Below, piece after piece: positions 2,470 to 22,485 of a stretch of DNA of 37,327 bases (its first letter is position 1; each line of letters opens with the position of its first letter). Below the pieces are notes generated by a model. That model was given only the letters and a program-made list of their open reading frames with translations. It was not told where the DNA came from and did not search any database. Position numbers and translations under genes: made by a program. The DNA is from an uncultured Burkholderiales bacterium (GTDB taxonomy: Bacteria; Pseudomonadota; Gammaproteobacteria; Burkholderiales; Usitatibacteraceae): positions 859 to 38,185 of the forward strand of contig CAZTYC010000001.1 in the NCBI GenBank assembly GCA_964617435.1, read 5' to 3'.

Positions 2470-3417
2470 ATGACCGCGCTGGCAAGCGATGCAATCACGG
2501 ATCTCGACCGGCTGCTGCCGTTCCTGGACAGCTTGCCGCTGCCCTTGATCGTCGGCCAGTCCACCGGGCCGCGCGCGGACGGCATCCGTCCCTGGCGGAC
2601 GCTTTTCGTCAACCAGCGCTTTCGCCAGGTCCTCGGCTATGCGGTGGATGAAATTGCCGACGGCCAACGATGGAACGAGCGTGTGTACCCGGATCCGGAC
2701 TATCGCCGCGAGCGCCTCGCCGAGGTGGCGCGGCAATCAACCACTGCCGGAATTGGCGGCGCGGACGAATTTGTGGCCTCCGTGGTGCGCCTGCGCTGCA
2801 AGGACGGCCTGGACCGCTGGTTCGAGATTTCCAAGAACTACGGCAGCATCCACAGCGGCGGCTACTTCGTCACCACTTTCACCGATGTGACGGCCCTGCG
2901 CAATGCGCAGACCGAGATCGAGCGCCTGGCGCGCACCGACGACCTGACCGGCCTGCCCAACCGCCGCGCGCTGCAGGATGCGATGGCGCTTGCGCAGTCG
3001 CGACGGTTGCGCAGCGGCAATCCGGTGGTGTGCGCCATGGCGGACATCGACCGCTTCAAGTCGATCAACGACACCCACGGCCACGACTGCGGCGACGAGG
3101 TGCTCGTGCAGGTGGCGCGCGCGCTGGCCGGCGCCGGGCGCAGCACGGACCTCATCGGCCGCTGGGGCGGCGAGGAATTCTGCCTCCTGCTGTGCGACAG
3201 CGCCTTGGACGCTGCGATAGTCCTGATTGACCGCGCGCGGCGCAACCTGACCGTGCGGCCCCCGCAGTGGCAGGGCCAGACGATGCCGGTGACCCTCACC
3301 TTCGGGGTCGCCGTTTGCCGGAGTGGCGAAACGATGGACAGCGCCCTCAGCCGCGCGGATGCGGCCATGCTGGCGGGAAAGCGTGCCGGACGGGACCGGG
3401 TGATGACCGCCGAGTGA
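2470..3417 (+). CDS. PAS-like sensor diguanylate cyclase (GGDEF domain, GGEEF active site, RxxD I-site)
   Basis: 315-aa ORF with DDLTGLPNRR, DIDRFKSINDTHGHDCGDEVL and RSTDLIGRWGGEEFCLLL. RSTD lies five residues before GGEEF. The N-terminal ~140 aa look PAS-like. Confidence 0.9.
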   Translation: MTALASDAITDLDRLLPFLDSLPLPLIVGQSTGPRADGIRPWRTLFVNQRFRQVLGYAVDEIADGQRWNERVYPDPDYRRERLAEVARQSTTAGIGGADEFVASVVRLRCKDGLDRWFEISKNYGSIHSGGYFVTTFTDVTALRNAQTEIERLARTDDLTGLPNRRALQDAMALAQSRRLRSGNPVVCAMADIDRFKSINDTHGHDCGDEVLVQVARALAGAGRSTDLIGRWGGEEFCLLLCDSALDAAIVLIDRARRNLTVRPPQWQGQTMPVTLTFGVAVCRSGETMDSALSRADAAMLAGKRAGRDRVMTAE

Positions 3418-3815: not shown

Positions 3816-4038
3816 TCGCAGCTCCCTATTGCGGATTTGGAGGATGAAAGAATGCCATGCCGTGCCGCCATGTGCGATCGGAACGATGCTGCTGATCCTG
3901 GCCTCCAATTTTCACATGGTGCTTGAAGGCGTGTCCGTGCCCATTCGTCCCGGGCCAACTGCGGATGCGCCATTCGCCCTATGATTGCTCCCTGCCCCAA
4001 GGCAAAATGTCTACACAACGACTTGCACGCAAACGCCC

Positions 4039-4647
4039 ATGACCACTCCCCGCCCCATCGATTTCTATTTCGATTTTTCCTCCCCCTACGGCTACCTGGC
4101 GTCCACGCGCATCAACGCGATTGCCGCCAACCACGGCCGGCGCGTGAACTGGCGGCCCATCCTGCTCGGCCCGATGTTCAAGGCCGTCGGCACGGCGCCA
4201 TTGGTGGGACTGCCCTTGAAGGGGCCGTATTCGATCCACGATTTCATCCGGTCCGCGCGCTATTACCGCGTGCCCTACAAGCAGCCCGACCCGTTTCCCA
4301 TCGGTACGCAGAATGCGGCGCGCGCTTTCTATTGGATCCAGGATCGCGACCCCCTGCGCGCCTGCCAGTTCGCGCAGGCCTGCTATGCGGAGTACTTCGG
4401 CCGCGGCATCGACATTTCCTCGGCCGAGAAAGTTGCCGACCTGGCCGCATCGTTGGGCGAAGATCGCGCGGCCACCCTCGCCGCCATGCAGGACCCGGCA
4501 ATCAAGGAGCGCATGAAAAACGAAAACGATGCGGCGCTGGCCCGCGGCGTGTTCGGCTCACCTTTCATCTTCGTGGACGACGAGCCGTTCTGGGGAAACG
4601 ACCGCCTCGACCAGGTGGATGCCTGGCTCGCCACAGGCGGTTTCTGA
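4039..4647 (+). CDS. 2-hydroxychromene-2-carboxylate isomerase-like DsbA/thioredoxin-fold protein
   Basis: Starting at ATG 4039, the translation is MTTPRPIDFYFDFSSPYGYLAS...GVFGSPFIFVDDEPFWGNDRLDQV, the characteristic HCCA isomerase/DsbA-like pattern. Confidence 0.85.
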   Translation: MTTPRPIDFYFDFSSPYGYLASTRINAIAANHGRRVNWRPILLGPMFKAVGTAPLVGLPLKGPYSIHDFIRSARYYRVPYKQPDPFPIGTQNAARAFYWIQDRDPLRACQFAQACYAEYFGRGIDISSAEKVADLAASLGEDRAATLAAMQDPAIKERMKNENDAALARGVFGSPFIFVDDEPFWGNDRLDQVDAWLATGGF

Positions 4648-4690: not shown

Positions 4691-5302
4691 TCAGCGCGCG
4701 TCCGCTGCCAGGAGCGCCGCCCAGTCCTCGCGCCGGATGCGTGCGACCGGCACGGCATTCCCGGCCTTTGGCAGGAACACGATCATCTCCAGCAGTTCAA
4801 GATGCATCCAGTCGGCGCGGTCCTTGCCGCCGTGCACATGCGACACCAGGATGGCATTGGTTCCGGGCGCGGGCGTTTCCGACAGCAGCGCGCGGCGCGC
4901 GGCGCCGGGGGGGAGCGCACCCGTCTCGGAACCGGCGTTCAGGCCCTTGGCGATCTCGGCGTTTCCAAAGCCCAGGCGCCTTGCGGTTTCCCGGTTTCGG
5001 CAGGGCTCGGAACTCAGAATCCGGCCTACCGGGACTTTCAAGGCACGCAACGCCGCCGCCACCTCAGCCGTGCTGCTGATGCCCACGGGCGTCAAAGCCG
5101 GCTTGGAACAATCTTCGATCTCCTCCGGCGGATACTGCGCGGCATGCCGGATATAGAGGTTGTACCCGCCCTTGCCGAGCGCCTGCACAAGCGCGGCGCC
5201 CTCCAGCCGGTGCGCTGCGTCCACGACGGGCAGCACGGGCGGCGTCCCGGGTGCCTGCGCGAGCACGCCAACTGACCAGAGCAACACCAAGGCCATGCGC
5301 AT
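4691..5302 (-). CDS. Secreted histidine-phosphatase-superfamily protein (SixA/phosphoglycerate-mutase-like), paralog 1
   Basis: 203 aa. It has a signal peptide (MRMALVLLWSVGVLAQA), GGYNLYIRHA (RH catalytic motif), SSEPCRNRETAR and VSHVH. Its ATG overlaps the TGA of the upstream ligase gene (TGATG on the minus strand at 5300-5304). Confidence 0.75.
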   Translation of the reverse strand: MRMALVLLWSVGVLAQAPGTPPVLPVVDAAHRLEGAALVQALGKGGYNLYIRHAAQYPPEEIEDCSKPALTPVGISSTAEVAAALRALKVPVGRILSSEPCRNRETARRLGFGNAEIAKGLNAGSETGALPPGAARRALLSETPAPGTNAILVSHVHGGKDRADWMHLELLEMIVFLPKAGNAVPVARIRREDWAALLAADAR

Positions 5303-6195
5303 CAGAATTTCTCCCGCACGCGAAGGAACGACGCAAAGCGCGGCAGCCCGGAATTGGTCAGCCCGCGATAGGTATAGGTGATTTCCGTGCCGATCGCTGG
5401 GGGGTTGGCGCGCTGTTCATCGGTGAAGCCGGTGCCGATGTTGAACTCGCGCCCGTCGGGCATCCGCACCCGCAATGCGCCCATCCGGCCGGCATGTCGA
5501 CCCTTGCCGGGAATGATGCCGACGACCGTGGCCTCGGTGTCTTCCAGCGGCTTCAATTTGTAAAGCGCGTCACTGCGGCCCGTGATGTAGGGCGCATCCG
5601 CACGGTGCAGCATCAGCCCTTCGCCGCCGCCCTTGACGACTTCGTCGAGCTTCTTCTTCAGCGCCTTCCGGTCCGCCACGCGGAATTGTTCCACCGCCCT
5701 GAGTTGCGGCCACGCTGCTGCCTCCGCAATGGCACGGATGCGCGCCGCACGCGCTTCGAACGTGTCCGGCGCGCCGGGCAGTTCGAACACCAGGTATTTC
5801 ACCTCGCGCCATTCGGCGTCGACGGGCTCGCTCTTGCGCACGATGCCGGACAGGCGCTCGAACTGGCCGCGCGCGATCCACAGCTCTCCATCCAGCGCGA
5901 TGTCGGGCAGCCGTTCAAGGAACCATTTCGGCGCGTTCACGACATTGCCGCTGCGGAAACGCAACACCTTGCCATCCCACACGGCGCGCACACCGTCGAA
6001 TTTCTCGCTGACCAGGTAGTCGCGCGGATCGACATGCGCGGGCAACACTTTGGCCAGCAGCAGGTCCGGCGCCGCACGCGAGGGCGTGCAGGCGAGCAAC
6101 ACAAAAAGCCCAAGACCAAGAAGCCAAACCCAAGCACTGGCGCGGCCCGCAGGGCGAAACTGTCCGGAAGCGCCCGTCCCGTCTGGACTTTTCAT
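5302..6195 (-). CDS. ligE: Minimal ATP-dependent DNA ligase with an N-terminal signal peptide (Lig E-type periplasmic/secreted ligase)
   Basis: The ATG at 6195 gives MKSPDG...AWVWLLGLGLFVLLACTPSRAAP (signal peptide, possibly lipobox-like LLAC). It continues with VSEKFDGVRA (KxDG adenylation motif, Lys codon 6001-6003), EGLMLHR, LYKLKP and the C-terminal OB-like part. The product is 297 aa, and the start lies 8 nt after the stop of the giant gene. The listed 991-aa ORF 5302..8277 is real only in this last part. Confidence 0.85.
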   Translation of the reverse strand: MKSPDGTGASGQFRPAGRASAWVWLLGLGLFVLLACTPSRAAPDLLLAKVLPAHVDPRDYLVSEKFDGVRAVWDGKVLRFRSGNVVNAPKWFLERLPDIALDGELWIARGQFERLSGIVRKSEPVDAEWREVKYLVFELPGAPDTFEARAARIRAIAEAAAWPQLRAVEQFRVADRKALKKKLDEVVKGGGEGLMLHRADAPYITGRSDALYKLKPLEDTEATVVGIIPGKGRHAGRMGALRVRMPDGREFNIGTGFTDEQRANPPAIGTEITYTYRGLTNSGLPRFASFLRVREKF

Positions 6196-6203
6196 GCCGC
6201 CCC

Positions 6204-9200
6204 CTAGGGAATCGTCCGCCCTGCGCGCGCCTTCGACGTGCTGACGTCTGCGGCGGAGATGGTCCCGCTGGCATTGATGTCGAGTTTGAAATTCGACGCG
6301 TCCACCGGCGTATTCCCGCTCCTGGCCTTGACGGCCGCGATGTCTGCGGCAGTGACCTTGCCCGTGCCGTTGACATCCCCCGGGAGGAAGCCGACCGCCA
6401 CCGCCGCGTTGACACTGCCGCCGGCATTCGTCAATTGCACCGTCAGCCGTGTGGCCTCCGGCACATTGGCCAGCGTGACCACGGCTTCGCTGCCGTTGGC
6501 CACGACCGAGGCGTTGATCCCCGCATAGGTCATGCCGGCCGCATCCAGCACACTGACCGTCCCCGGATTCCCGCCCAGCGAGCCGGTGAACACGAACACG
6601 ATCTGGTGGCCCGCGCCGATCACGCGCGGCTCTACGGTATAGGCGCCGTTGACATCGACACCAACGGCAAGCGGGAGAATGCCGGCAAAGCCGCCGTGCT
6701 GCTTGCGCGATTCGACGCGGTCGAGCGCGATGGGCGCAAACGGTGTCACGTCCACCGTCGCCGACGCCGCCCCTGTGCCCGCCGAATTCATCGCGGTCAC
6801 GGAGCAGGTATAGGTGACGCCGTTGGACAGGCCGCTCACCAGGATAGGCGAACCGGCGGCACTGGCTGTCTTCATGCCCGGATTGCAGGTGACGGTGTAG
6901 CCGAGGATGGCGCTGCCGCCGTTGCTCGCCGGTGGCGAGAACACGATGCTGGCCGCACCATCGAGTTCGTCGGGAATGCCGATGGTGGGCGCGCCGGGAA
7001 CAGTCACCGCCGCGGGCGTGACATCCAACGCGCTCGAGGCCGGGCCGATTCCCATGTTGGCCGCCGCGGCATTGCGCGCCGTGACAGAACAGGAATAGGT
7101 GACGTTGTTCGCCAACCCGGTCACCGTGATCGGCCCGTTCGCCGCAGTCCCGGTGCGCGTCGTCTGGCCCGATGCCGTGCAAGTGACGGTGTAATCGATG
7201 ATCGCGCTGCCGCCGTTCGAAGCGGGCACCCCGAAGGAGACCTGCGCCTGCGCGTTCCCCGGCGTGGCGGTGCCGATGACGGGCATCCCGGGCGGAACGG
7301 GCGTGATCGTCACATTCTGGGTGGCTTGCGAGGCCGCCGCGTAGTTGGCATTGCCGGCCTGGTTGGCCGCAATGGTGCAGGTGCCGCCGAACACCATCGT
7401 CACCGTGGTGCCGCTCACCGTGCAAACCGGAGAGGTGATGGAGGAATACGTCACCGGATTGCCGGACCCGCCGCCGGAGGCCAATGGATTGATCGGGAAA
7501 GGGCCGCCGGGCACGAAGGATTGCGAAGACGGCGACTGGGAGGCAAAGGTGATCGTCTGTGCGGCGGGGGCGATGGTCAGCGTCAACGGCGCCATGCCGG
7601 TACCGCCGGCATTGGTCGCCGAAATCGTTGCGTTGAACACACCGCCTGCGCCAGCGGTGCCGGAAATCGCGCCGGTCATCGTGTCGAGGACGAGTCCAGT
7701 GGGCAAGCCGGCAGCGCCAAAGGAAGTCGGTGTTCCCGTGGCCAGGATCTGGTAACTGAACGGTGCATTGAAGGTGCCATTCGCCGTCGCGGCGCTGGTA
7801 ATCGACGGCGCACCAGGCAATACGGTGATCGTGACCTGGACCGGATCTCCATCGACATTCGGACTGGTTCGCTTGCCGCGATAGGTAAAGGAGTCGATGC
7901 CGGCAAAGCCCGGGTTGGGCGTGTAGGTGGCGACGGTGCCAGCAAAGGTGCCCAGCATGCCGTTGGTGGGAGGCGTCACCACCTCCACGTCCGTGAAGGC
8001 GGACCACGCCTGGCCGGTCAGGTGGATGTGGCTCGCCACGTCCACCTGCACAGGCGAGTTCTGCGACGTGCTGGGCGCATTCGCTGGCAACTGGTCGCGA
8101 ATGAACACGGCGATCGCGGCCAGTTCCGACTGCGTCAGGTTTTGCACCGGCGGGGAGATGGCCATCAACGGTTGCGCGGTACGCACATGCTGCAGCACTG
8201 TGGCGGTGCTGCCGGCGCCGTTGAGCTGGTTTCCGGAAGGCGAGGCGGCATGGCAGTTTGCGCACACGCTGGTCCACAGGGCGCTGCCGTTGGCCGACGT
8301 GGGCGTGACCATGACGCTGCCGGAGGGGCCGCTGGTCTTGCCGGCCTGGTTGGTTGCCGTCACGCTACAGGTGTAGGGCGTGCCGTTGGAAAGTCCACCG
8401 ACGGTCACCGGAGAAGCGGAATTGTTTCCAGTCACTCCGCCGGGGTTGCAGGTGGCGGTGTAGGTGGCGATGGCACTACCGCCCGCGCTCGAGGGCGGCG
8501 TGAAATTGAGGGTCGCGGCCATGTCGGAACCGCTGGCCACGCCGATTACAGGCGCCCCCGGGGCAATGGCATCAATGGTGACGCTCTGCGTGACCTGGGT
8601 CGCGGCATTGTAGTTGGCGTCCCCAGCCTGATTCGCCGCAATCGTGCATACGCCCGCGCTCAACGTATTAACGTTGTTGCCGGCCATGGTGCACACCGCC
8701 GGCGTGGTGGTGCTGTAGCTGATGGGCAATGCCGAAGTCGCAAAAGCCACGGGCGACAGCGCGAAGGGCGTAGTGCTGAAGTTGCGCGGGCTTGCCTGCG
8801 CGCTGAAGGTAATGGTCTGCCCCGCCTTGGCGATGGTGAACGCGCGCGTGACATCGTTGGCGGCCAGGTAGTCCGCGTTGCCCGCCTGGGCGGCCGTGAT
8901 CGAGCAGACACCGGGGGCGACCGTGGTCAGGTTGGCACCGGACACGGTGCAGACGGCCGGCGTGTTGCTGCTCAGGGTCACCGCCAGGCCCGAGGACGAA
9001 CTCGCCGCGAGGGGAATCGGGGCCTGCGCGTAGCTTTGCGTGCCCGGATTGGCAAAGCTGATCGTTTGGGCGACCTTGGCAACCGTCAGCGTGAACGACT
9101 GCATCACCGTGCCGGTTGCGTTTGTGGCGGTGAAGGTCAGCGGATACGGCGACGCGTTCGCGGTGCCGCTCGCGGGCAAACCGGACAGCACACCGGTCGC

Positions 9201-12200
9201 CGGCACAAAGGTAACGCCGGACGGCAGGGTCCCGCTGACCGACAGCACCGGTGGCAGGTTGCCTGTTGCCGTCACGGTAAACGTGCCGTTGGCCAGCACC
9301 GAGAAACTGGTCGCATTCGCGCTGGTGAAGTTGGGTGCCACCAGGGCGGCGGTCGGGGTCGCAAGCACGGGCGGGCTGGAGTCCGGGCCGGTCAATGCGG
9401 CGGCATTGGTCGCCGTCACGGTGCAACTGTATTGGACCCCGTTGGTCAACCCGCCGACGGTGATGGGCGACGTCGCGCTGGTCCCGGAGCCGCTCGGCGA
9501 ACAGGTCGCCGAGTACTGCGTGATCGGGCTGCCGCCGGTGTTCGACGGCGGCGAGAAGGACAGGCTCGCCTGCATCACGCCCGCCACGCCCATGACTCCC
9601 GTGGGCGCACCGGGCGCGACGGCGCTGATGGTCACGTTCTGCGTCACCTGCAGCGCGGCGTTGTAATTGGCGTTGCCGCCCTGGTCGGCAGCGACGGTGC
9701 ACACCCCCGCGGCAACCGGCGTCACGTTCGTGCCCGCCACGGTGCACACGGACGGTGTGAGCGAACTGTAGGTGACCGTCAGGCCGGACGTGCTGCTCGC
9801 CAACGGGCTGACGGGGAAGCCGGCGCCGAAAGGCTGCGGACCGGATTGCGCGCCGAAAGTGATCGACTGCGCGGCCGGCGAGATGGTCACCTGCACGAGC
9901 TGCATGCCGGTGCCCCCCGGGTTGGTGGCCGACACGGTGACGTTGAAGACGCCCGCTTGCCCGGGTGTTCCGCTGATGAGGCCACTTGCGGTGTCGATGG
10001 TTACCCCCGCGCCGAGCGGGCTCGCGCCGTAACTCACCGGGGATTGCGTGGCCGAGATCTGGTAACTGAACGGCTGGCCAAAGACGCCATTGGCGGCCCC
10101 TGGACTGGTAATCGCAGGAGCCGGCGGCGTGGCCACATTGACCGTTACCGTGAAGGCATCGCCCAGCAACAACGGCGAAGAGCGGCGCCCGCGGTAGGTG
10201 AAGCTGTCCATTCCCGCAAAGCCCGGATTGGGCGTGTATGTGATGACCGTTCCGTTGAATGCCGACAAGGTACCGTTGGCCGGCTGGCTGACCACCTGCG
10301 CGGCATCAAACGCGACGCCGCCCAGATACAAGTGTTTCGGCAGGCCGACGTCGATGTCCACCGGCGTCACATATGCGGTGTTGGCGGTGATGGGCGACAG
10401 TTGATCGCGGATGTACTTCGCGATCTCGGAGAGTTCATTTGCGGTAAGCGCCTGGACCGCGCCATCGGCGAGCATCTCCGGCTGCACGGAGCGCACATAG
10501 GCAATGATGTTGCCGGTCGCGCCGGCGGCGTTGAGGCGGCCTGCATTTGGCGTGGCACCATGGCAACCGCTGCAGACCGCATTCCAAAGCACAGTCCCGC
10601 TGCGCAGGGTCGGCGTGGCCATCAGCGCGTTGGACTCCGCCCCCACCCCCTTGGAATTTTGCGCCGCCACCGTGCACGTGTAAGCGGTGTTGTTGGTTAG
10701 CCCTCCGACCACCACGGGTTGCGACGCGCCATTGGCGGTGACGCCGCCGGGATTGCAAGTCCCCCGGTAGCCCGTGACGGCGGCGCCGCCATCGCTGGCG
10801 GGCGGATCGAAGTACAGCCGGATCGTAGAGTCATTGGCCAGTGTGTCATTGAGAGTGGGCGCGCCGGGCGGCACCGCATTAATCGAAATGTTGGCGTTGA
10901 CGGAACTCGCCGCAAAGTAATTTTGGTCTCCCGGCTGCGCCGCGGTCACCGTGCAGATCCCGGCAGAAAGGATCGTGATATTGGTGCCCGCCGCCATGCA
11001 AACGCCGGGGGTGGCCGAGGTGTAGTCGATGGGCAGGCCAGACGTCGCACTGGCCAGCGGGCTGATCGCGAATGAACCGCCCTGGACGAATGGTTGCGCC
11101 GCTTGCGCAGGAAAGGCGATCGATTGCGCCGCCTTGCCGATGACCACGTTTTGCGTCACATCGGCGGCCGCAAGGTAAAGCGCGTTGCCGTCCTGCGACG
11201 CTTCGATGGTGCAGGTGCCCGCGCCGATGATCGTAACCGTCGTGCCGGCCACGCTGCAGGTCGAGGGCGTCAGCGATGCGTAGCCGACCGCGAGTCCGGA
11301 AGATGCCGACGCCGTCGGGCTGATCGCAAAGCTGCCGCCCGGGCTGTAGGTGCGGCTTGCCTGGGCCCCGAACGTGATCGATTGATTTCCCTTGTTGATC
11401 GAGAAACTGCGCGCCACCTGGGAAGCCGGGTTGTAGCTTGCGGTATAGGACAGGGACGCATTCGCTGAATTGGCGTTGATGGTGCAGGTGCCGACGCCAA
11501 CGGTCGTCAAGAGCGTGCCGGACACGGTGCAAACGGGCGACGTCGCGCTGGTGAACACGATGTTCGACGCAGCCAGGGTGCTATTGGGCGTGGCGATGGT
11601 CGCCGCGAGGTTGTAGGTCGGCGAGGCCGTGTACTGCTGGTCCGCAACGGCCGGGAACGTGATGGTGGGGCTGCCCTTTGCGACGCTGAACGACAGCGTC
11701 TGCGTGGGGCACGGCGGCAACGTACCGCACTGCGAATTGTCCGCCTTCAACGTCAATGAGTAGGAACCCACGGATCCGGCCGCCGGAACTCCCCCCAACC
11801 AGGCGAGGCCGGGGGGAATCCTGGCGTTGGTGGCGTTGGTCTGGAACGTCATCCCGGACGGCAGCGACGATGCGTTGGTCAGCACCGCATTGGGACGCGC
11901 CGTGGTGACCACGACGAAGGTCTTCGAGGCTCCCACGTTGAAGGCATACGACGCGGGCGGCAACGTCGCCGCACTTCTGAAGGTCGGTCCAATCGGCGTG
12001 GATATTGGCGTCACCGACGCGGGCGACGAAGGCGGGCTGACCCCGAAACTGTTGCTCGCCGTCACCGTGCACGAATACGCCACGCTGTTGACCAGATTGA
12101 GCACGACAATCGGCGAGTAAACCGTGGTTGAACTTCCCGTCCGCGTTGTTTGGCCGGCTGCCGTGCAGGTTGCCGTGTATGTCACGCCCGGACCATTGCC

Positions 12201-13649
12201 ATTTGCGCCGATCGGGATGGTGGCCCGGGTGTCCCCAGCGACAATGGCCGAGGTAATCAGCGGCTGAAGCGGTGTTTCGGTAAGCGAAATGTCGCCATTG
12301 ACATCCGCCGCAGGATTGAAATTCGCATTGCCGTTCTGCGACGCCTCGATGGTGCAGAGCCCGTTGTCGAGCATGGTGACCGTGTTGCTGGTCGTCCCCG
12401 GCGTGGTGCACACGGTGGGCGTCAACGAGGTGTAGGTCACCGCGAGACCGGACGACGCCGCCACGCCCGTCACGGAGAATGTGCCATTGAGCACGAAGGC
12501 CTTGTCGGACTGCGCCGGGAACGTAATGGACTGGTTGCCCTTGTTGATCGTGATCGAGCGGTTGACTGAAACCGCCGGGTTCCAGTCGCTGTTGCCGGGT
12601 TGCGCCGCGGTGATCGAGCAGTTGCCCACCGACACCATGTTCACCAGGGTGCCGGAGGATGGCTTGGTGCAAACGCCCGTCGAATTGGACGAATACACGA
12701 TGGCCAGTCCGGAGGAGGCGCTGGCCGCCGGACTCAGGCTGAAGGTTCCGCCATTCGAGAAATAGGGCATCACGACTTGCGAACCGAACGTGATGGTCTG
12801 GTTGCCCTTGTTGATCGTGATGCTGCGCGTGACGTCCGGCGCCGCGTTGTAGGTCGAGTTTCCGTTCTGGTTGGCGCGCAACGTGCAAGTGCCGGCGCCC
12901 TGCATGGTCACCGTGGTCCCGCTCACCGTGCAAACCGGCGTGGTATCGGACGTATAGGTGATGGCCAGCCCCGAGGTCGCGCTGGCCAGAGGGCTGACGG
13001 AGAATGTGGCGCCCGGAGAGTAGGTGCGCGGCGAGGTTTGCGCGCCAAACGTGATGGTCTGGTCCAGCTTCGGCACGGTGATGACGAAGTTGGCCGCGTG
13101 ATTCCATTCGACACCAACGCGTGCCGCCGCATACAAGGTGCGCGTGCCACCCACGGCAACGCTGCCGGGCATGGTGAACTTGAAGGAAAAGGTGGTTGCG
13201 CCGGACGCATCGGTGATCCGGTCGTCGGTTGAGTTGTGGGTCAGGTCGTCGTCCGGCTTTTGCAGGTAGATCGACGATTCGCTCAGGTTGTCTGAACTCG
13301 CCGCAATATTGACCCCGGCTTTCGAACTCGCCGCGCCGTTGGTGATACTGATCGTGTACGACCCTTGGGCCCCTGCAGCCAAATTCGCCGGTCCGGAAAT
13401 GGACACGCCCAACGTTGCATTGGGGCTGTGGCACGAACCGCATCCCGCGCCGCCATCCTTGTTGGTGCGCCCGGTGATGCCGCTGGAGTAGGCGTCTGCG
13501 TTTCCAACGGAAAATGCCGTGAGCAAGGCGGCAAGTGCCGCAAAACACCGGGGCACTCCGCTACCGTTGCCGGTTGAAGGCCGGTGATGCGATTCAACAG
13601 CCGCTTCCAACGATGATCCCTTCTGGCGCTTATTGTGGTCTAACGGCAT
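6204..13649 (-). CDS. Giant (2481 aa) secreted multi-domain protein: N-terminal CXXCH module, many two-Cys Ig-like repeats, FN3 domains, two embedded class-I cytochrome-c-like domains, cadherin-like and He_PIG-like Ig domains, and a C-terminal dockerin-like repeat pair
   Basis: The frame is uninterrupted and G/T/S/A/N-rich, typical of adhesins. It has a signal peptide (VPRCFAALAALLTAFSVGNADA) and CGSCH at aa 70-74. Repeats of the form QTITFGAQ...SGL..Y.S.TP.VCTV.G...G.C.I.A.Q.GN..Y recur. FN3-like modules follow the pattern PGAP....F.PP...GGS.I..Y...C. The cytochrome-like segments are LWNAVCSGCHG...MLADGAVQALTANELSEIAKYIRDQ and LWTSVCANCHA...MAISPPVQNLTQSELAAIAVFIRDQ. The C-terminus reads GDVNGTGKVTAADIAAVK...LDINASGTISAADVS. 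A strong SD (GGGGGAGA) precedes the ATG. Confidence 0.9.
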   Translation of the reverse strand: MPLDHNKRQKGSSLEAAVESHHRPSTGNGSGVPRCFAALAALLTAFSVGNADAYSSGITGRTNKDGGAGCGSCHSPNATLGVSISGPANLAAGAQGSYTISITNGAASSKAGVNIAASSDNLSESSIYLQKPDDDLTHNSTDDRITDASGATTFSFKFTMPGSVAVGGTRTLYAAARVGVEWNHAANFVITVPKLDQTITFGAQTSPRTYSPGATFSVSPLASATSGLAITYTSDTTPVCTVSGTTVTMQGAGTCTLRANQNGNSTYNAAPDVTRSITINKGNQTITFGSQVVMPYFSNGGTFSLSPAASASSGLAIVYSSNSTGVCTKPSSGTLVNMVSVGNCSITAAQPGNSDWNPAVSVNRSITINKGNQSITFPAQSDKAFVLNGTFSVTGVAASSGLAVTYTSLTPTVCTTPGTTSNTVTMLDNGLCTIEASQNGNANFNPAADVNGDISLTETPLQPLITSAIVAGDTRATIPIGANGNGPGVTYTATCTAAGQTTRTGSSTTVYSPIVVLNLVNSVAYSCTVTASNSFGVSPPSSPASVTPISTPIGPTFRSAATLPPASYAFNVGASKTFVVVTTARPNAVLTNASSLPSGMTFQTNATNARIPPGLAWLGGVPAAGSVGSYSLTLKADNSQCGTLPPCPTQTLSFSVAKGSPTITFPAVADQQYTASPTYNLAATIATPNSTLAASNIVFTSATSPVCTVSGTLLTTVGVGTCTINANSANASLSYTASYNPASQVARSFSINKGNQSITFGAQASRTYSPGGSFAISPTASASSGLAVGYASLTPSTCSVAGTTVTIIGAGTCTIEASQDGNALYLAAADVTQNVVIGKAAQSIAFPAQAAQPFVQGGSFAISPLASATSGLPIDYTSATPGVCMAAGTNITILSAGICTVTAAQPGDQNYFAASSVNANISINAVPPGAPTLNDTLANDSTIRLYFDPPASDGGAAVTGYRGTCNPGGVTANGASQPVVVGGLTNNTAYTCTVAAQNSKGVGAESNALMATPTLRSGTVLWNAVCSGCHGATPNAGRLNAAGATGNIIAYVRSVQPEMLADGAVQALTANELSEIAKYIRDQLSPITANTAYVTPVDIDVGLPKHLYLGGVAFDAAQVVSQPANGTLSAFNGTVITYTPNPGFAGMDSFTYRGRRSSPLLLGDAFTVTVNVATPPAPAITSPGAANGVFGQPFSYQISATQSPVSYGASPLGAGVTIDTASGLISGTPGQAGVFNVTVSATNPGGTGMQLVQVTISPAAQSITFGAQSGPQPFGAGFPVSPLASSTSGLTVTYSSLTPSVCTVAGTNVTPVAAGVCTVAADQGGNANYNAALQVTQNVTISAVAPGAPTGVMGVAGVMQASLSFSPPSNTGGSPITQYSATCSPSGSGTSATSPITVGGLTNGVQYSCTVTATNAAALTGPDSSPPVLATPTAALVAPNFTSANATSFSVLANGTFTVTATGNLPPVLSVSGTLPSGVTFVPATGVLSGLPASGTANASPYPLTFTATNATGTVMQSFTLTVAKVAQTISFANPGTQSYAQAPIPLAASSSSGLAVTLSSNTPAVCTVSGANLTTVAPGVCSITAAQAGNADYLAANDVTRAFTIAKAGQTITFSAQASPRNFSTTPFALSPVAFATSALPISYSTTTPAVCTMAGNNVNTLSAGVCTIAANQAGDANYNAATQVTQSVTIDAIAPGAPVIGVASGSDMAATLNFTPPSSAGGSAIATYTATCNPGGVTGNNSASPVTVGGLSNGTPYTCSVTATNQAGKTSGPSGSVMVTPTSANGSALWTSVCANCHAASPSGNQLNGAGSTATVLQHVRTAQPLMAISPPVQNLTQSELAAIAVFIRDQLPANAPSTSQNSPVQVDVASHIHLTGQAWSAFTDVEVVTPPTNGMLGTFAGTVATYTPNPGFAGIDSFTYRGKRTSPNVDGDPVQVTITVLPGAPSITSAATANGTFNAPFSYQILATGTPTSFGAAGLPTGLVLDTMTGAISGTAGAGGVFNATISATNAGGTGMAPLTLTIAPAAQTITFASQSPSSQSFVPGGPFPINPLASGGGSGNPVTYSSITSPVCTVSGTTVTMVFGGTCTIAANQAGNANYAAASQATQNVTITPVPPGMPVIGTATPGNAQAQVSFGVPASNGGSAIIDYTVTCTASGQTTRTGTAANGPITVTGLANNVTYSCSVTARNAAAANMGIGPASSALDVTPAAVTVPGAPTIGIPDELDGAASIVFSPPASNGGSAILGYTVTCNPGMKTASAAGSPILVSGLSNGVTYTCSVTAMNSAGTGAASATVDVTPFAPIALDRVESRKQHGGFAGILPLAVGVDVNGAYTVEPRVIGAGHQIVFVFTGSLGGNPGTVSVLDAAGMTYAGINASVVANGSEAVVTLANVPEATRLTVQLTNAGGSVNAAVAVGFLPGDVNGTGKVTAADIAAVKARSGNTPVDASNFKLDINASGTISAADVSTSKARAGRTIP
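6207..6380 (-). other. C-terminal dockerin-like duplicated Ca-binding segment of the giant protein
   Basis: GDVNGTGKVTAADIAAVKARSG...KLDINASGTISAADVSTSKA contains two D.N..G.....D loop-helix repeats, as in type I dockerins. An Ig/cohesin-like module (SRKQHGGFAGILPL...) precedes it. Confidence 0.6.
7010..9074 (-). repeat. Super-repeat copy B of the giant gene (approx. aa 1526-2210)
   Basis: It starts at AKVAQTISFANPG (about 9041-9080) and has the same module order as copy A. Boundaries are approximate. Confidence 0.7.
8250..8264 (-). other. CXXCH motif 3 (CANCH, aa 1796-1800) inside the second cytochrome-c-like domain
   Basis: Reverse complement TGC GCA AAC TGC CAT. It lies exactly 770 codons downstream of motif 2, in the same domain context. 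Confidence 0.65.
9340..11384 (-). repeat. Super-repeat copy A of the giant gene (approx. aa 756-1436): Ig-Ig-FN3-cytochrome c-cadherin-like-He_PIG-Ig-FN3
   Basis: The domain order is colinear with copy B, and the two CXXCH motifs are 2310 nt apart. The copies are diverged at the DNA level (protein-level repeat). Boundaries are approximate. Confidence 0.7.
10560..10574 (-). other. CXXCH motif 2 (CSGCH, aa 1026-1030) inside a class-I cytochrome-c-like domain
   Basis: Reverse complement TGC AGC GGT TGC CAT. A Met-containing segment and an amphipathic LSxxELxxIAxYI helix follow downstream, as in monohaem class I cytochromes c. Confidence 0.65.
13428..13442 (-). other. CXXCH haem-attachment motif 1 (CGSCH, aa 70-74) of the giant protein
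   Basis: The plus strand reads gtggcacgaaccgca, whose reverse complement TGC GGT TCG TGC CAC lies about 18 residues after the predicted signal-peptide cleavage site. Confidence 0.6.
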
Positions 13650-13951: not shown

Positions 13952-14662
13952 CTAGTTTCGGGATTGCGCCGGCGCGCCGTTGCTCAGCGCGCCCCATTCA
14001 CCCGACCGGATCCGCGCCACCGGCACCGGTGGCCCATCCGCCTTGGGACGAAACACGATCACCTCACCCATGTCCATGAACAGCCGGTCCGTTCCGCCAT
14101 TGCCGTTCTGCATATGCCCCACCAGCAGCCGGTTTTTGCCCGGCGGCGGGACCGTGGCGATCAACCGGGCGCGGCCCTCGTGCAAGCGGTGATCCTCGCG
14201 CTTGGGATTCCGATGCAAATCTTCATGCGTTTCCACCGGGGCGACGTCGACCAGCCTGGCGGTTTCCCAGACGCGGCACACTTCGGAGGAGATGACCTTG
14301 TCGAAAGGAATCTCCAGCCGCCGCATTTCCTGGCCGATGCGGCGCGCTTCCTCGCGGCCGGACGCGGTCAGGTTACTTTTGTCGCACGTCGGCGTGACCT
14401 CGCCGGTTTCCGTGTGCCGCAGGTAAAGCACATATCCGCCACGCCGCAACTCCTCCAGCAGGGCCTTGCCGGAGAGTGCGGACGCCTCGTCCACTTGCGG
14501 AATGCGCGGCAGGCCCCCGGGAGGCGTGCCCGAAACTTGCGCCAATGCCTGCATGCCGGGTACCAGGAGTAACCAGCCGACGAGCAAGGTTGCAACGCGG
14601 CGATCGCGCGACCTGGCAGCGCAATGTGTTTCCGTCGAATGGCAATTCGCACGCCTGATCAT
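13952..14662 (-). CDS. Secreted histidine-phosphatase-superfamily protein, paralog 2
   Basis: Starting at Met 14662, the hydrophobic signal region is VATLLVGWLLLVPGMQALAQ. GGYVLYLRHT, SSEVCRVWETAR and VGHMQ follow, and the tail (EVIVFRPKADGPPVPVARIRSGEW) is shared with paralog 1 (EMIVFLPKAGNAVPVARIRREDW). The start codon is uncertain; the listed ORF extends to 14791. Confidence 0.7.
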   Translation of the reverse strand: MIRRANCHSTETHCAARSRDRRVATLLVGWLLLVPGMQALAQVSGTPPGGLPRIPQVDEASALSGKALLEELRRGGYVLYLRHTETGEVTPTCDKSNLTASGREEARRIGQEMRRLEIPFDKVISSEVCRVWETARLVDVAPVETHEDLHRNPKREDHRLHEGRARLIATVPPPGKNRLLVGHMQNGNGGTDRLFMDMGEVIVFRPKADGPPVPVARIRSGEWGALSNGAPAQSRN

Positions 14663-14853
14663 CAGCCAATCCCCTGTTTGCGGGTCAATATGACGTTGGC
14701 ATTTTGGCATCTTCCGGCGTAACATGACGTCGGCCCAACAGGTTGAGAGTTTGCCTGAGTACCTTGTTCCAGGCCATTGATTGCAATACAATTTTTTGCG
14801 CCCCAGATTTCGCGCTCGGCGCGCTCGTTGTCTTCCGGCAAAAAGGGAATCCT

Positions 14854-17800
14854 ATGGCCCCGAGTATTGGCGGCATCTTTTGGCTATGCAGGCAGGTGCG
14901 CTGGACCGCCCTGCTCTTCCTCGTTGCCCTGGCCGCGACCTTGTCATCGCATGAAGCGCGGGCGCAGTCGATCGCCGCCGGTGCCAACATCTGGGCCCCA
15001 TTCAATGCAATGACCAACCCCACCGGCCAAGGGTGTGGCGGCTGCCACGGCACTCCGCCGAGCCTGCCGCAAAAGAACGCGGGCAACGCAGTGGCCGTGT
15101 TCAACGCCGCCATTGCGGCGAATGCCGGTAATTTCATGGGCGCGTACTCGGGCATGAGCGGCACGGATCGCCAGAGCGTCGCGCTCTATATCGGCTCTTC
15201 CGGCGGAGTCACCGAATCGGCAAGCCACTCCGTGACCGTCAACTACGGCAGTTCTGGAAATCTGATCACGCCGCTTAACATCGGCGTGAGCTACACCAGT
15301 GCCAGCATGACCGGCCTCAACGGCGGCACCGTGCAGCAGATCGCCACCACGTCAGGCCCGACGCGCGGCACACTGGCATCGAGCACCCTGACCACCGCTG
15401 GCGCGACGTTCAGCTACAACCACACCGCGACGAATTGCACGGCAGATTCGATTACCTACCAAGGGTCCGGGGTTTCCGGATCGCTGACTCAAGCAAAAAC
15501 GGTCACGATCAACATCACCCCCCCCACCCCGCCGACAATTTCGAACTCGTCGGCAAACATCGCCTACAACTCGTCGATGTCCACCAATATTCCGCTGACC
15601 TTGGGCGGCGGCACGGCGACGTCGCTGATCGTCGGTGCGCTGTCCGGGGGGGCGGGTACGTTGAATGCCACCGGCACCACGCTGACCTACACCGCCAGTG
15701 CCAGCACATATGTGGCCTCCCAGACCGTCAGCGTGCAGGCGGTCGGGCCGTGCGCGACCTCCGCCGCGGCCACCATCACCATCAACGTCGCGGCTCCTCC
15801 GGTGCCGGTGATCACCAGCGCCAACATGGCTTCGGGCGTCGGCGGACAGGCATTCAGCTTCAATGTCACGGCGAGCAATGCGCCCACCGGTTTCGCGGCA
15901 TCCGGTTTGCCCGCGGGTCTGAGCATCAACCCGACGACGGGCGCCATCACCGGAACCCCGTCGGTGTCCGGCATGTTCACCGCCATGGTGACGGCCTCCA
16001 ACGGATCGGGCACAAGCACCGCGCAATCGCTGGCCATCAACGTCACGCTGGCCACGCCGGTGATCACCAGCACGCTCTCCGCGAACGCCACCTCGGGCTC
16101 GCCGTTCACCTACAACATCACCGCAAGCAACCTGCCGGCCAGTTTCAACGCCACCGGGTTGCCGACCGGGCTGATGATCAACACGAGCACCGGGGCGATC
16201 ACCGGGACGCCGGTGGTGGCCATGGCGGGCACCGTGGCGATCACATTGTCGGCCACCAACACTGCGGGGACCGGCACGGCGACGCTGATGCTCAACGTTT
16301 CGCTCAACGCGCCCACCATCACCAGCGCCAACACGGCCAGCGGCAATGTCGGCAGCGCATTCACGTTCAATGTGACCGCAACGGACTTCCCCTCTTCATA
16401 CGGCGCCACGGGATTGCCGGCAGGCTTGTCGATCAACACGATGACCGGGGTGATCTCGGGGACACCCACCTCGGCCGGCGTATCGATGGTCAACCTCACG
16501 GCCACCAACGGAGCGGGCACCGGAATGCAGACGCTCGTGATCACCATCACGCTCCTGCCACCGGTAGTGAGCAGCGGCGCGTCGGTGTCGGGAACGGTCA
16601 CGCAACCGGTGAGTTACCAAATCACGGCCTCGAATTCACCCACGTCCTTTGGTGCGTCCGGGCTGCCCGCAGGGCTGTCCGTCAATGCCATGACCGGCCT
16701 GATCAGCGGCTCACCGACGTCCACCGGGACCACGGTGGTGACTGTCTCCGCCACCAACGCCGCCGGCACGGGCACCAAGGCGGTCACTTTCTCAATCTCC
16801 AATTTCCCGGCGCCCACAATGGCGGGCGCCACGATCCAGGTGCCTTTTGGCGGGACCGGCACCGTGGACTTCTCGCTCTTGTCCGGCGGCAGCAACGTGA
16901 CCAGTTATGTGATCACGCAACCGGCCACCCGAGGCACGATCACCGTCAACGGCAACGTTGCAACTTACACGCCGCAGGCCGGATTCTTCGGCATGGATTC
17001 CTTTGGGGTGACCGCCATGGGCCCCGGCGGAACCTCCCAGCAGGGCCTCATCACGGTGATCGTTGGCACGCCGGCCGCGCCGACCGTCGCGGCGCGCAGC
17101 GTGACGGTGCCCTACAACACGCAAACGGTCATCAGCCTGACCGCCGCAGTCACGGGCGTGGCCACCAGCATTGCCATCACCACGCCTCCCGCCAACGGCA
17201 CGGCCACGGTGAGCGGGCTGACGGTCCTTTACAAGCCGAAGGCGGATTACTTCGGTGACGACAGTTTCGCGTACACCGCCACCGGGCCCGGCGGAACCTC
17301 GATGCCGGCCACCGTTTCCATCACCGTCGCCACGCAGGCGCCATCCGCCTCCGCCGTCAGTTTCGCGGTACCGGCCAACACCGCCACCACGATGGACCTC
17401 AAGCCATTCATCACCGGTTCGGCGATCACCGGGGTGCGGGTCACGGTGGAACCCAAGTTCGGCAAGTCTGCGGTCAATGGCACCAAGGTGGTCTACACGC
17501 CCAATGAGGATTACCTGGGTCCGGACAGCCTTTCCTACATCGCGTTTGGCAATGCCGGCACCTCGGCAGCCGCTGTCGTGACGATCACCGTCATGGGCGA
17601 TCGTCCCAATCCGCTCAAGTCCGGCACGGTGGGCAGCATTGTCAGTTCCCAGGCAGACACCGCCCAACGCAATGCCACGACGACGATCACGACACTCCAG
17701 ACCCGAAACGAGGCCCTGCGGCGTGGGGGCGAGGTGGCCGACGCCAGCCCGGCCCCGCGTGCGCCGCGAGCGCAAGGGAGGGTCGAAACCTCGCTTACCG

Positions 17801-19685: not shown

Positions 19686-21638
19686 GTGAAACGTACTCCC
19701 ATAGCCTCCTTTGGACTGTGTTTCGCGTTGTCCGCGCTCCTCGCGGGCTGCGGAGGCGGCGGCCAGGGCGAAACGACACCCGATGTCGTGCCCGGCCAGA
19801 AAGCCACGCCCCCGACCACCGGGCCCAACCTGTTCCTGCTGTTTCCGAACCCCCAGAAGCAGGCCGACGGCACGATCGAAACCAATACCGCCGCATATAC
19901 GCAGTCTTACTACGAGGCCATCGACCCGAACAATGAACGGGACACGCTGACCAAGTACAAGCAGAAGAATGGTTTTGGCAGCGGCACGGGGGAAGAAGTC
20001 ACGGTCGTGTTCGGCGACCAGCGCGACTTGGGTTACGGACGGCGGATGAACGCGCGCCGCAATCCGGACGGCACCCTCGCCTTCTTTGTCGAAAACTACC
20101 TGATTCAGGCGGGCGAGGGCTACCAGTACTCCCCCGCCAACCTGGAAGCCGCCATCGTGCGCGATCCAAAATGGCTGGTCGGCATCAACGCGATTGAATT
20201 CACGCCCGGGCCCAACGGCGGCGCGCCGTTCCCGAAGTTCTACAACTTCGTGGCGGGCACCGAGCAACGCGCAACCTTCGTGGATCTGGACGGCCGCGGC
20301 GGCAAGGCCATGCCCGGGCCGTGCATCAGCTGCCACGGCGGGCGCGGCGACGCCTTGATGCCGGCGGACGCCAGCGGGAAGCGCAAGTTCAATCTGGTTC
20401 AGAACGGCGTGTCGCTGCAGCGCGGCGACGTACAGGCGCGCCTGCACCCGTTTGAGCCGGATGTGTTCGGCTTCTCGACCACCACGGGTTTCAGCCGCGC
20501 GGAGCAGGAGGCCAGCATCAAGAAGATCAATACCTGGATCCTGTGCAGTTATCCGATCCACAGCGCATCCACCGCGCCGGAAGACCAGTGCCGGCGTCCT
20601 GCGGGCGCGAGCGAATGGCTGGCTCCGCAGGCCGATCTCATCAAGGCCGCATACGGCGGCACCGGATTGCCGCGCGCCAATTGGGATGACACCTACGTGC
20701 CGCCGGGATGGGAATCGGTGGGGCAATCCTCGCTCTACCGCGACGTGGTCGCCACGTCCTGCCGCACCTGCCATTCCCAGCGCGGCACCATCCTCCAGGA
20801 TGACATTTCTTTCCCCACCTACGCCAAGTTCGCCGCGTATTCCGACCGCATCAAGGCGCATGTGATCGACCGCGGCAACATGCCGCTCGCGCAGATCGTC
20901 TACAACGCGTTCTACGGCAACAACCGCCAGGAAACCGTCGGCGCATTCCTGGCCCAGCAGGGGTTGAACGTCAAGGATTCGGCCGGCGCGACGCTCAAGC
21001 CCGGCCGTCCGGTCGCGGATCCGGGCCCGTCGAGGGTCGTCCGCCAGGGGGCCTCGCCCCTGTCCGCGTCGAACAGCCTCTACGCCTCGTCCTACGCTTG
21101 GAGCATCCTGTCCGGGCCTTCCGGCGGCGCGACGATTTCGGCCCCCACCTCTGAGAACACCACGTTCAACGCCTCGCTCAACGGCACCTATGTGGTGCGA
21201 TTGGTGGCCTCGGCCGGCAGCGTGCAAAGCGCCCCAGTGGACATCACCATCGTCGTCGACAATTCACTGGCGAAATCGCCCGCAGACATCCGGTTTGCCG
21301 ACATCAAGGCCGTGCTTCAATCGGCGGAGGCGGGGTGCACGAGTTCGAATTGCCACTCCGCGGGGGGCACGCAATCCGCGCCGGTGTTCTACACCAACTA
21401 CGATCGCAACGGCGATGGCGTGCAGAACAGCATCGACGAGGACTGGTTCCATGCGGAGGTCCGCAGCCGGATCAATTTCACGGACATCGTGTCCAGCCCG
21501 CTGCTGCGCAAGCCTTCGGGAAATCACCACGCCGGCCTGCTGCGTCCCGGATTCGACGCCACGGCGGCCCCCGGCCAGTCCGCGCGCGCCAACTTTGACC
21601 TGTTCCAGAACTGGATCCTGAACGGCGCCCCAAAGTGA
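19686..21638 (+). CDS. Lipoprotein (650 aa) with two CXXCH motifs and one CX4CH motif; putative haem lipoprotein of unknown family
   Basis: The GTG start lies 11 nt after the autotransporter stop, with SD AAAGGA. The lipobox is LLAG-C (Cys22 codon 19749-19751), followed by a GGGGQ linker. The motifs are CISCH (20322-20336), CRTCH (20760-20774) and CTSSNCH (21336-21356). The last is followed by SSPLLRKPSGNHHAG, reminiscent of planctomycete-type cytochrome c modules. Confidence 0.8.
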   Translation: MKRTPIASFGLCFALSALLAGCGGGGQGETTPDVVPGQKATPPTTGPNLFLLFPNPQKQADGTIETNTAAYTQSYYEAIDPNNERDTLTKYKQKNGFGSGTGEEVTVVFGDQRDLGYGRRMNARRNPDGTLAFFVENYLIQAGEGYQYSPANLEAAIVRDPKWLVGINAIEFTPGPNGGAPFPKFYNFVAGTEQRATFVDLDGRGGKAMPGPCISCHGGRGDALMPADASGKRKFNLVQNGVSLQRGDVQARLHPFEPDVFGFSTTTGFSRAEQEASIKKINTWILCSYPIHSASTAPEDQCRRPAGASEWLAPQADLIKAAYGGTGLPRANWDDTYVPPGWESVGQSSLYRDVVATSCRTCHSQRGTILQDDISFPTYAKFAAYSDRIKAHVIDRGNMPLAQIVYNAFYGNNRQETVGAFLAQQGLNVKDSAGATLKPGRPVADPGPSRVVRQGASPLSASNSLYASSYAWSILSGPSGGATISAPTSENTTFNASLNGTYVVRLVASAGSVQSAPVDITIVVDNSLAKSPADIRFADIKAVLQSAEAGCTSSNCHSAGGTQSAPVFYTNYDRNGDGVQNSIDEDWFHAEVRSRINFTDIVSSPLLRKPSGNHHAGLLRPGFDATAAPGQSARANFDLFQNWILNGAPK

Positions 21639-22443: not shown

Positions 22444-22485
22444 GAGGTCTCCAGATTTGGGAAATTGAAGGGCGGCGGCCCGGAC

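Follow-up and report, generated by a model that had tools for sequence, protein, structure and literature searches.

Does the DNA ligase Lig E, for which neither synteny nor an operon-encoded partner is known (PMC8455567), have a gene partner in environmental bacteria, and what could such a partner contribute outside the cytoplasm? This question is raised by a stretch of 37,327 nucleotides (nt) from an uncultured Burkholderiales bacterium of the Usitatibacteraceae (GenBank assembly GCA_964617435.1, contig CAZTYC010000001.1, positions 859 to 38,185), which is referred to as the window. It holds a Lig E gene placed between a giant gene, whose product ends in a dockerin, and a small open reading frame (ORF) for a predicted exported histidine phosphatase of 203 amino acids (aa). 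Lig E is widespread, with at least 8000 relatives at E<=1e-20, and occurs in major pathogens; its proposed extracytoplasmic roles relate to extracellular DNA (eDNA) in biofilms and to the uptake of damaged DNA in transformation. No description of a conserved and coupled pair of Lig E and phosphatase genes behind a dockerin-terminated giant protein was found in the literature searched, its components being known kinds of proteins. The preliminary description of this DNA had likewise known of no such pairing, in line with the Lig E literature, which states that there is neither synteny nor an operon partner (PMC8455567).

Read directly from the sequence, the giant gene, the ligase gene and the 203-aa ORF all lie on the minus strand. 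The giant ORF (6204..13649) codes for 2481 aa and ends with a TAG at 6206..6204, which is followed by a spacer of 8 nt (GGGGCGGC, 6203..6196, minus strand) and then by the ligase ATG at 6195..6193. Stop codon and beginning of the spacer together read TAGGGGG, which is Shine-Dalgarno-like and stands ahead of the ligase ATG. The Lig E ORF (5302..6195, minus strand) comprises 297 codons up to its TGA (5304..5302), and the ATG at 6195 is its only workable start, because the next in-frame GTG and TTG codons fall within the hydrophobic core of the leader peptide. At the TGATG junction (5300..5304, minus strand), the ligase TGA and the phosphatase ATG (5302..5300) share one base, the A, while a Shine-Dalgarno-like GGGAG (5311..5315, minus strand) is embedded in the final ligase codons (Arg-Glu of VREKF), with its last G 8 nt 5' of the phosphatase ATG. 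The phosphatase ORF (4691..5302, minus strand) has 203 codons for a predicted exported histidine phosphatase of branch 1 and of SixA-like size, and a gap of 44 nt separates its end from the stop codon of a DsbA-family gene in convergent orientation (3985..4647, plus strand). The distance of 8 nt behind the giant gene and the overlap of ligase TGA and phosphatase ATG are thus both as the preliminary description had given them. Moreover, gene calling carried out independently on five further assemblies of this organism gave the same 297-aa and 203-aa genes with the same overlap. Scans for promoters and terminators gave nothing above shuffled controls, and the absence of any terminator-like site from the stretch that links giant gene, ligase and phosphatase counts as weak evidence.

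A 1-nt overlap between genes is by itself common in bacteria, and it is the persistence of the ligase-phosphatase overlap rather than the overlap itself which, judged from the loci compared, exceeds chance. Paired loci were gathered by following phosphatase homologues to their contigs, from one genome per species for Lig E, from metagenome contigs with the closer phosphatase set (alignment A3), and with two closer ligases. A Lig E gene directly followed by a phosphatase of the same clade was found in 16 distinct loci of betaproteobacterial metagenome-assembled genomes (MAGs) and metagenomes (the window, L001, L006, L007, L009, L013, L014, L023, L033, L093-L096, L098, L173, and L174), with the ligase being about 68-81% and the phosphatase 46-68% identical to those of the window. 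The TGATG junction is kept in 11 of these 16 loci, the other five featuring a gap of 0-25 nt, and overlap or short gap persists while the phosphatase diverges to 46% identity and the flanks change. In addition, GGGAG or GGGAT occurs at the equivalent position in most paired loci, although this conservation may merely reflect conserved ligase codons. Downstream of the pair, an MFS transporter, a convergent DsbA gene, an Ada-type regulator, another giant protein or a TPR regulator is encoded, and the body of the upstream protein likewise varies, being composed of fn3/He_PIG/cytochrome c, of PKD/YncE/InlB-repeat, of RCC1 or of SBBP/fn3 domains. In BLASTP searches, the C-terminal 200 aa of the giant protein of the window matched the protein encoded ahead of the pair wherever a paired locus includes upstream DNA, and the same query gave no match in the 76 Lig E loci without the phosphatase. 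Since this C-terminal module of about 200 aa is the only part of the upstream protein which is common to the paired loci, the conserved unit consists of an Ig-like plus dockerin C-terminus, Lig E, and the phosphatase. Judged by gene order, the comparison demonstrates a predicted translational coupling of ligase and phosphatase, which, together with the giant gene, form the tail of a lineage-specific cassette for exported proteins.

Further observations concern individual loci and the surroundings of Lig E at large. In the three closest loci (L001, L006, and L007), an MFS sugar-type transporter of 579-595 aa is encoded on the same strand 120-170 nt past the phosphatase; it is missing in the window, where the convergent DsbA gene abuts instead. 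The phosphatase frame of L033 (4762-5309, Burkholderiales MAG) features two in-frame stops and two profile matches and represents either a decaying copy or an assembly error. An RNase_T gene at the head of L173 and L174 was considered as a partner and rejected, as it codes for an unrelated oligoribonuclease without leader peptide. In 70 other Lig E loci that were compared, the most recurrent downstream gene family was shared by four, which agrees with the published statement that Lig E shows no synteny (PMC8455567), and fusions of Lig E were not found in the best 120 of the at least 8000 relatives. In a neighbour-joining tree, the paired ligases fall into two groups, clade A with a bootstrap of 100 and clade B with 68, which join in only 13 of 100 replicates, and this tree is compatible with one as well as with two origins of the paired ligases. 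Lig E proteins of 59-70% identity were also seen in MAGs labelled as Acidobacteriota (Holophagaceae, Blastocatellia), Binatia, Verrucomicrobiia, Chloroflexota, and others (L017-L090), labels of this kind being potentially unreliable. In the literature on Lig E, its occurrence is described as limited to Proteobacteria.

By profile score, domain content and motifs, the ligase is a true Lig E. It scores 362 bits against the NCBIfam Lig E equivalog NF006592 (PRK09125; cut-off 200) with residues 31-296 covered, and its 297 aa include only the Pfam domains DNA_ligase_A_M and DNA_ligase_OB_2, an additional DNA-binding domain being absent. In the PDB, it matches best the three Lig E enzymes of known structure, namely 4d05 (1e-72), 6gdr, and 8u6x. 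The alignment with 4d05 runs end to end and begins at residue 43, just past the predicted cleavage site, with the mature N-terminus APDLLLAKV being aligned with the start of the solved mature protein. The KxDG adenylation motif is represented by SEKFDG, with the codon of Lys65 at 6001-6003, and this motif as well as EGLMLH and LYKLKP are invariant among close ligase relatives (alignment A2) and match 4d05. The predicted Sec signal peptide comprises residues 1-41 (6073..6195, minus strand; manual criteria) with a candidate cleavage site between SRA and AP. A lipobox-like LLAC within this leader (residues 32-35, 6091-6102), directly ahead of the A-x-A site, was considered as a lipoprotein signal and rejected; its Cys is present in the window and L001 and absent in L006, L007, and L009, and lipidation is therefore unlikely as a conserved feature.

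The assignment of the 203-aa product required more sensitive approaches. No Pfam family matched it at E<=0.01, so it stays below the PF00300 gathering threshold, and its NCBIfam matches (PRK06193 with 1e-15, SixA with 4e-3) are both under the cut-off. Several of its more distant homologues, which carry PF00300, do pass the Pfam cut-off, and a profile of 21 homologues matched histidine phosphatases of the PDB with E-values down to 1.7e-6. The AlphaFold2 model reached a mean predicted local distance difference test (pLDDT) score of 89.4 and, in Foldseek, matched 75 PDB chains at E<=1e-3 (best 9e-8); all 50 matches listed, with a TM of about 0.55, were histidine phosphatases, including RosC, SixA, PGAM5, and the histidine phosphatase domain of MutT1. 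Candidate catalytic residues are R52-H53 (5144-5149), R102 (4997-4999), and H155 (4838-4840), which are invariant in the first homologue alignment (A1) and conserved across 100 distinct family domains to 96% (R52), 99% (H53), 100% (R102), and 98% (H155). In the same 100 domains, Cys65 and Cys101 are both present in 98 and both absent in two, with no discordant case. Cys101 adjoins the catalytic Arg. The two Cys residues are a candidate disulfide, and such a co-varying Cys pair would fit a structural disulfide and an oxidising compartment. On the basis of profiles and predicted structure, the product is established as a divergent histidine phosphatase of branch 1 with an apparently intact catalytic core. 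Its identification as SixA was ruled out, since it scores 16.9 bits against TIGR00249 with a cut-off of 74.5 and has a predicted leader peptide. The latter is of the Sec type and comprises residues 1-17 (5252..5302, minus strand; manual criteria) with a candidate site between AQA and PG; a hydrophobic N-terminus is found in 21 of 21 first-round homologues.

Both enzymes feature a basic n-region, a hydrophobic stretch (10-residue Kyte-Doolittle means of 2.9 for the ligase and 2.6 for the phosphatase) and cleavage sites of the A-x-A type. The leaders, which were judged by manual criteria and not by a trained predictor, are Sec-type for ligase and phosphatase in every homologous pair examined. 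The giant protein also has a basic n-region, a hydrophobic core and a small-x-small site. From these features we infer the export of giant protein, ligase and phosphatase to the periplasm or cell surface, which in the case of the phosphatase family gains support from the Cys pair and from relatives that carry fused RTX repeats as found in type I secreted proteins. Thus, the Lig E assignment given in the preliminary description is confirmed by the NF006592 score and the solved structures, its histidine phosphatase label is upheld by fold, profile and the R-H...R...H residues in spite of being undetectable by Pfam, and the signal peptides which it had proposed for both proteins are recovered by manual criteria here and in the homologous pairs.

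How could these proteins act together? Under the explanation preferred here, giant protein, Lig E and phosphatase would all be exported to the periplasm or cell surface, where the giant protein may form part of a surface layer or matrix. Lig E would seal nicks with 3'-OH and 5'-phosphate ends in extracellular or incoming DNA, and the phosphatase, being small, metal-independent and made in step with the ligase, may strip terminal phosphomonoesters from the same polymer, its most useful targets being ligation-blocking 3'-phosphates, which would thereby be turned into sealable ends. Such an exported cassette, in which phosphatase and Lig E act on a shared polymer, is the best of the explanations considered, although less likely than not. 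As to the specific mechanism, healing of DNA 3'-ends as proposed in the preliminary description is plausible and the single likeliest candidate in our analysis, if a doubtful one. That the pair constitutes an extracytoplasmic healing and sealing system, with a polynucleotide 3'-phosphatase of the histidine phosphatase fold feeding Lig E in a dockerin-protein matrix, is judged unlikely. A function on eDNA is in keeping with the Lig E of Neisseria, which raises transformation with nicked extracellular DNA and affects the eDNA-rich biofilm (PMC10799422; bioRxiv 10.64898/2026.03.22.713542), and a ligase tied to a 3'-phosphoesterase has a precedent in LigD (PMC3300020).

This reading has to be weighed against contrary observations on the enzyme itself, on the chemistry of DNA breaks, on the distribution of the pair and on the associations of the phosphatase beyond the ligase. 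Nothing in the phosphatase sequence points to DNA. The predicted isoelectric point, which was considered as a hint to DNA binding and rejected, does not separate the groups, the medians being 9.1 for ligase-linked, 8.9 for unlinked and 8.65 for giant-linked members. A DNA 3'-phosphatase of the histidine phosphatase superfamily was not found in the literature searched. Nuclease-made breaks with 3'-phosphates carry 5'-OH ends and oxidative ones are gapped, which is why healing in the known systems also involves a kinase (Pnkp) or a polymerase (LigD). Without either, a phosphatase and a ligase would repair only the uncommon ungapped nick with 3'-phosphate and 5'-phosphate, and a non-specific phosphomonoesterase would also remove the 5'-phosphates needed by the ligase. 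Neither a 5'-kinase nor a gap-filling polymerase was found among the genes of the window or the neighbours listed for the paired loci, and domain searches revealed no nuclease, kinase, polymerase or competence gene in the window. Furthermore, the phosphatase is present in only four (L013, L014, L023, and L033) of the 80 species-representative genomes with the nearest Lig E (59-71% identity), all four being betaproteobacterial MAGs labelled Usitatibacteraceae, Burkholderiales or Betaproteobacteria. Given this restriction of the pairing to a narrow lineage, vertical inheritance alone may account for some of its conservation. The pairing in other genomes, on which the joint function suggested in the preliminary description depends, is borne out by the 16 loci, albeit within one small lineage and a minor fraction of the nearest Lig E.

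Equally relevant is where the phosphatase occurs without the ligase. The ligase-linked phosphatases form one clade of the phosphatase tree, and members of the same clade are found directly behind giant dockerin proteins without a ligase in L005, L097, and L099, while in L011 and L107 neither ligase nor giant gene is adjacent. A 259-aa protein encoded 5' of the L011 phosphatase was considered as a ligase and turned out to be a secreted protein instead. The paralogue of the window (13952..14662) groups with L116 and L117, which also precede the N-termini of giant genes, so that two phosphatase clades are tied to giant genes, one on each side, with the ligase in one of them only. The family as a whole is of modest size, with 73 clusters at E<=1e-30 and 1033 at E<=1e-10 in a set of 1.84 billion representatives, and for about 70 of 80 more distant members no giant protein is encoded in the vicinity. 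No shared partner was found for this wider family, the upstream genes coding for a methyltransferase, Hsp33, a PP-loop ATPase, a radical SAM enzyme and a NapC cytochrome. Ten multi-domain relatives were examined, which carry lysyl oxidase (five), RTX repeats (three), DUF4874/DUF4832 (one) or a Vgb-lyase propeller (one) and suggest extracellular protein or glycan chemistry rather than DNA. Tandem double-phosphatase proteins were also found among the relatives. The phosphatase-lysyl oxidase fusion recurs in five independent clusters at 50% identity, and relatives with lysyl oxidase, RTX repeats or tandem phosphatases include P0102, P0108, P0115, P0125, P0160; P0104, P0112, P0132; and L108, L125, L127-L129. 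Because of the ligase-less giant-linked members, the upstream paralogue clade and the fusions to lysyl oxidase, RTX or glycosidase-like domains, the phosphatase is a general extracellular module and not specific to the ligase. Its family is associated foremost with giant dockerin proteins, and Lig E appears to have been recruited into this association. The picture of the preliminary description, in which ligase and phosphatase form a module, is to be corrected mainly on this point, given the same clade behind giant proteins in L005, L097, and L099, the paralogue and the fused relatives, and with these other associations a DNA role of the phosphatase is less than likely.

These observations lead directly to the explanation which competes most closely with a shared polymer. 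The phosphatase might serve the giant dockerin protein or a polymer of matrix or envelope, e.g., a phosphoprotein, a phosphorylated glycan or the core of lipopolysaccharide (LPS) as in the case of Ais from E. coli, with Lig E merely belonging to the same surface or biofilm regulon and sharing no substrate with the phosphatase. The two clades tied to giant genes, downstream in L005, L097, and L099 and upstream at 13952-14662, in L116 and in L117, argue for it, as do the dockerin module upstream in every paired locus with upstream DNA, relatives fused to lysyl oxidase (a matrix protein cross-linker), DUF4874/DUF4832 or RTX repeats, and the small SixA-like size, which fits enzymes acting on macromolecules. 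It leaves unexplained, however, why the ligase is positioned between the two genes and why the 1-nt overlap is kept in 11 loci despite swaps of the giant body; besides, extracellular phosphorylation of such proteins is undocumented here, and the roughly 70 of 80 distant family members without a giant protein nearby do not follow from it. We regard this role as possible yet more doubtful than not. A function in nutrient acquisition has to be considered as well, since branch 1 histidine phosphatases are often promiscuous. As a broad phosphomonoesterase, the enzyme would free phosphate, sugars and nucleosides, including those from eDNA-derived nucleotides, and would be linked to the ligase by co-expression only. 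PhoE, Gpm2, and RosC among its PDB relatives, the MFS sugar-type transporter encoded downstream on the same strand in L001, L006, and L007, and the heterogeneous neighbours of the wider family (1033 clusters, E<=1e-10), as would be expected for a general enzyme, are in line with this function. Yet no Pho-type or phosphate-transport genes occur in the window, the transporter is absent there and in L009, L013, L033, and L173, and an enzyme for scavenging would not be expected to be so tightly coupled in translation to a DNA ligase, which together leave this function unlikely.

Two further explanations were given little weight. The phosphatase could restrain or tune Lig E by removing 5'-phosphates or by hydrolysing scarce extracellular ATP, ADP or AMP. 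Co-translation in a ratio of 1:1 would suit such a modulator, some domains of the histidine phosphatase fold act on nucleotides (e.g., the domain at the C-terminus of MutT1, one of the fold matches), and the supply of ATP to an extracytoplasmic Lig E is a recognised open issue; still, the occurrences of the phosphatase without a ligase argue for a separate role, and modulation is considered very unlikely. Finally, the adjacency might have no functional meaning and represent an accident of gene order inherited in one lineage. The narrow spread among the nearest Lig E (four of 80 species representatives), a common origin of all paired ligases, which is compatible with the tree, and the in-frame stops in the L033 phosphatase would all be in keeping with it. 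Against an accident stand the survival of the pair while both flanks and the body of the upstream protein were repeatedly exchanged, the intact catalytic residues in both genes and a junction within 0-25 nt or overlapping in all 16 loci, and it is rated the most improbable of the explanations discussed here.

The giant protein itself deserves a closer description. Pfam and NCBIfam assign to it an N-terminal choice-of-anchor V domain, fn3, He_PIG and Big_9 repeats, two cytochrome c domains and a C-terminal dockerin. Three CxxCH motifs lie at residues 70, 1026, and 1796, with two of them being located in the cytochrome c domains amid fn3/He_PIG repeats and one in the choice-of-anchor V domain. 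A dockerin-terminated, haem-bearing surface protein of 2481 aa is unusual in itself. The preliminary description had spoken of a giant adhesin-like gene; the giant gene is real, and 'adhesin-like' is retained only as a loose label in view of the fn3/He_PIG/Big_9, cytochrome c and dockerin domains. The C-terminal module (6207..6836, minus strand; about 200 aa), delimited by BLASTP, Pfam and AlphaFold2, combines an Ig-like beta-sandwich with a dockerin-type repeat. Its Dockerin_1 match reaches 36 bits with a cut-off of 22.9. The model is of moderate quality (pLDDT 64), shows a generic Ig-like sandwich for the pre-dockerin domain and had no significant PDB match, only generic Ig-like ones at E>1e-3. 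A reading of the module as a cohesin-dockerin pair was considered and gained no support from this model; a cohesin was not found in the window.

Upstream of the giant gene, the second exported-type histidine phosphatase (13952..14662, minus strand; 236 aa) ends about 300 nt from the giant-gene ATG. This paralogue matches the family profile with E 3.8e-56 and PF00300 with 29.9 bits (cut-off 21.7), and its leader contains RDRRVATLL and could be of the Tat type. It is adjoined by a divergent autotransporter gene (14743-19674, plus strand; 1643 aa) with He_PIG and Big_9 repeats and an Autotransporter beta-domain, which is followed by a PKD-like protein of 650 aa (19686-21635). The region around paralogue and giant gene is an island of large surface proteins. 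Beyond it, a signalling cluster (21715-31867) codes for three FecR-domain proteins, a CHASE2 adenylate/guanylate cyclase, a CHASE2-PAS histidine kinase and an OmpR-type response regulator, and the opposite flank of the cassette holds genes for a PAS-GGDEF diguanylate cyclase (2470-3417) and for a Crp-family regulator (1529-2239). The signalling genes, the diguanylate cyclase and the Crp-family regulator are possible regulators of the surface-protein island.

The relevance of the cassette lies in the fact that it provides Lig E with its first conserved gene partner, here in a lineage of uncultured bacteria from soil and water. Within this one environmental lineage only, it is at odds with the generalisation that Lig E lacks conserved partners. 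As the lack of synteny leaves no clue to partners of Lig E (PMC8455567), the coupled pair offers a concrete hypothesis. Should the phosphatase act on DNA ends, this would add a new substrate class to the histidine phosphatase superfamily and a second step to the repair of periplasmic or extracellular DNA. Healing combined with sealing would give Lig E its first functional partner and would point directly to the extracytoplasmic role of this ligase. If the phosphatase does not act on DNA, the cassette would still tie the expression of Lig E to the production of a surface or matrix protein, which bears on the biofilm hypothesis.

Among the known systems, the LigD phosphoesterase as well as the Pnkp of T4 and bacteria with their ligases resemble the pair only in their logic, as the removal of 3'-phosphates is tied to a ligase (PMC3300020, PMC3592404). 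In their catalytic parts they differ, with the LigD phosphoesterase (PE) being a Mn-dependent barrel and Pnkp a DxDxT acylphosphatase, whereas the phosphatase described here has a predicted histidine phosphatase fold, which implies a phospho-His and no metal. The 203-aa protein gave no match to a PE, DxDxT/HAD or calcineurin-like family in Pfam and NCBIfam. Moreover, LigD and Pnkp are cytoplasmic and accompanied by a kinase or polymerase, while the present pair is predicted to be extracytoplasmic and has neither. The pair should not be classed as a LigD-PE/Pnkp healing-and-sealing system. The phosphatase is closer to SixA, to the small branch 1 enzymes of PF00300 and to RosC and PGAM5, with which it has the alpha/beta fold, the R-H...R...H residues, the S-x-x-x-R-x-x-x-T pattern and a size near that of SixA in common. 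It differs from SixA and branch 1 in being predicted as exported rather than cytoplasmic, in the Cys pair by the catalytic Arg and in its scores below the cut-offs, and the ligase-linked clade features RHA and not RHG, unlike SixA-type enzymes. Periplasmic histidine phosphatases of the Ais/PmrG type from enterobacteria possess a signal peptide and about 200 aa and act on the phosphate of the LPS core. They may be likened to the present phosphatase in leader, size and predicted fold class, and their gene context differs. The ligase, in turn, agrees with the characterised Lig E enzymes of Psychromonas (4d05), Alteromonas (6gdr), and Neisseria gonorrhoeae (8u6x), which likewise combine nucleotidyltransferase (NTase) and OB domains, the KxDG motif and an N-terminal leader. 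For published Lig E genes, neither conserved neighbours nor partners within an operon are known (PMC8455567) and the hosts studied include pathogens, whereas the Lig E genes described here stand between a giant dockerin protein and a coupled phosphatase in uncultured betaproteobacteria represented by Usitatibacteraceae and Burkholderiales MAGs.

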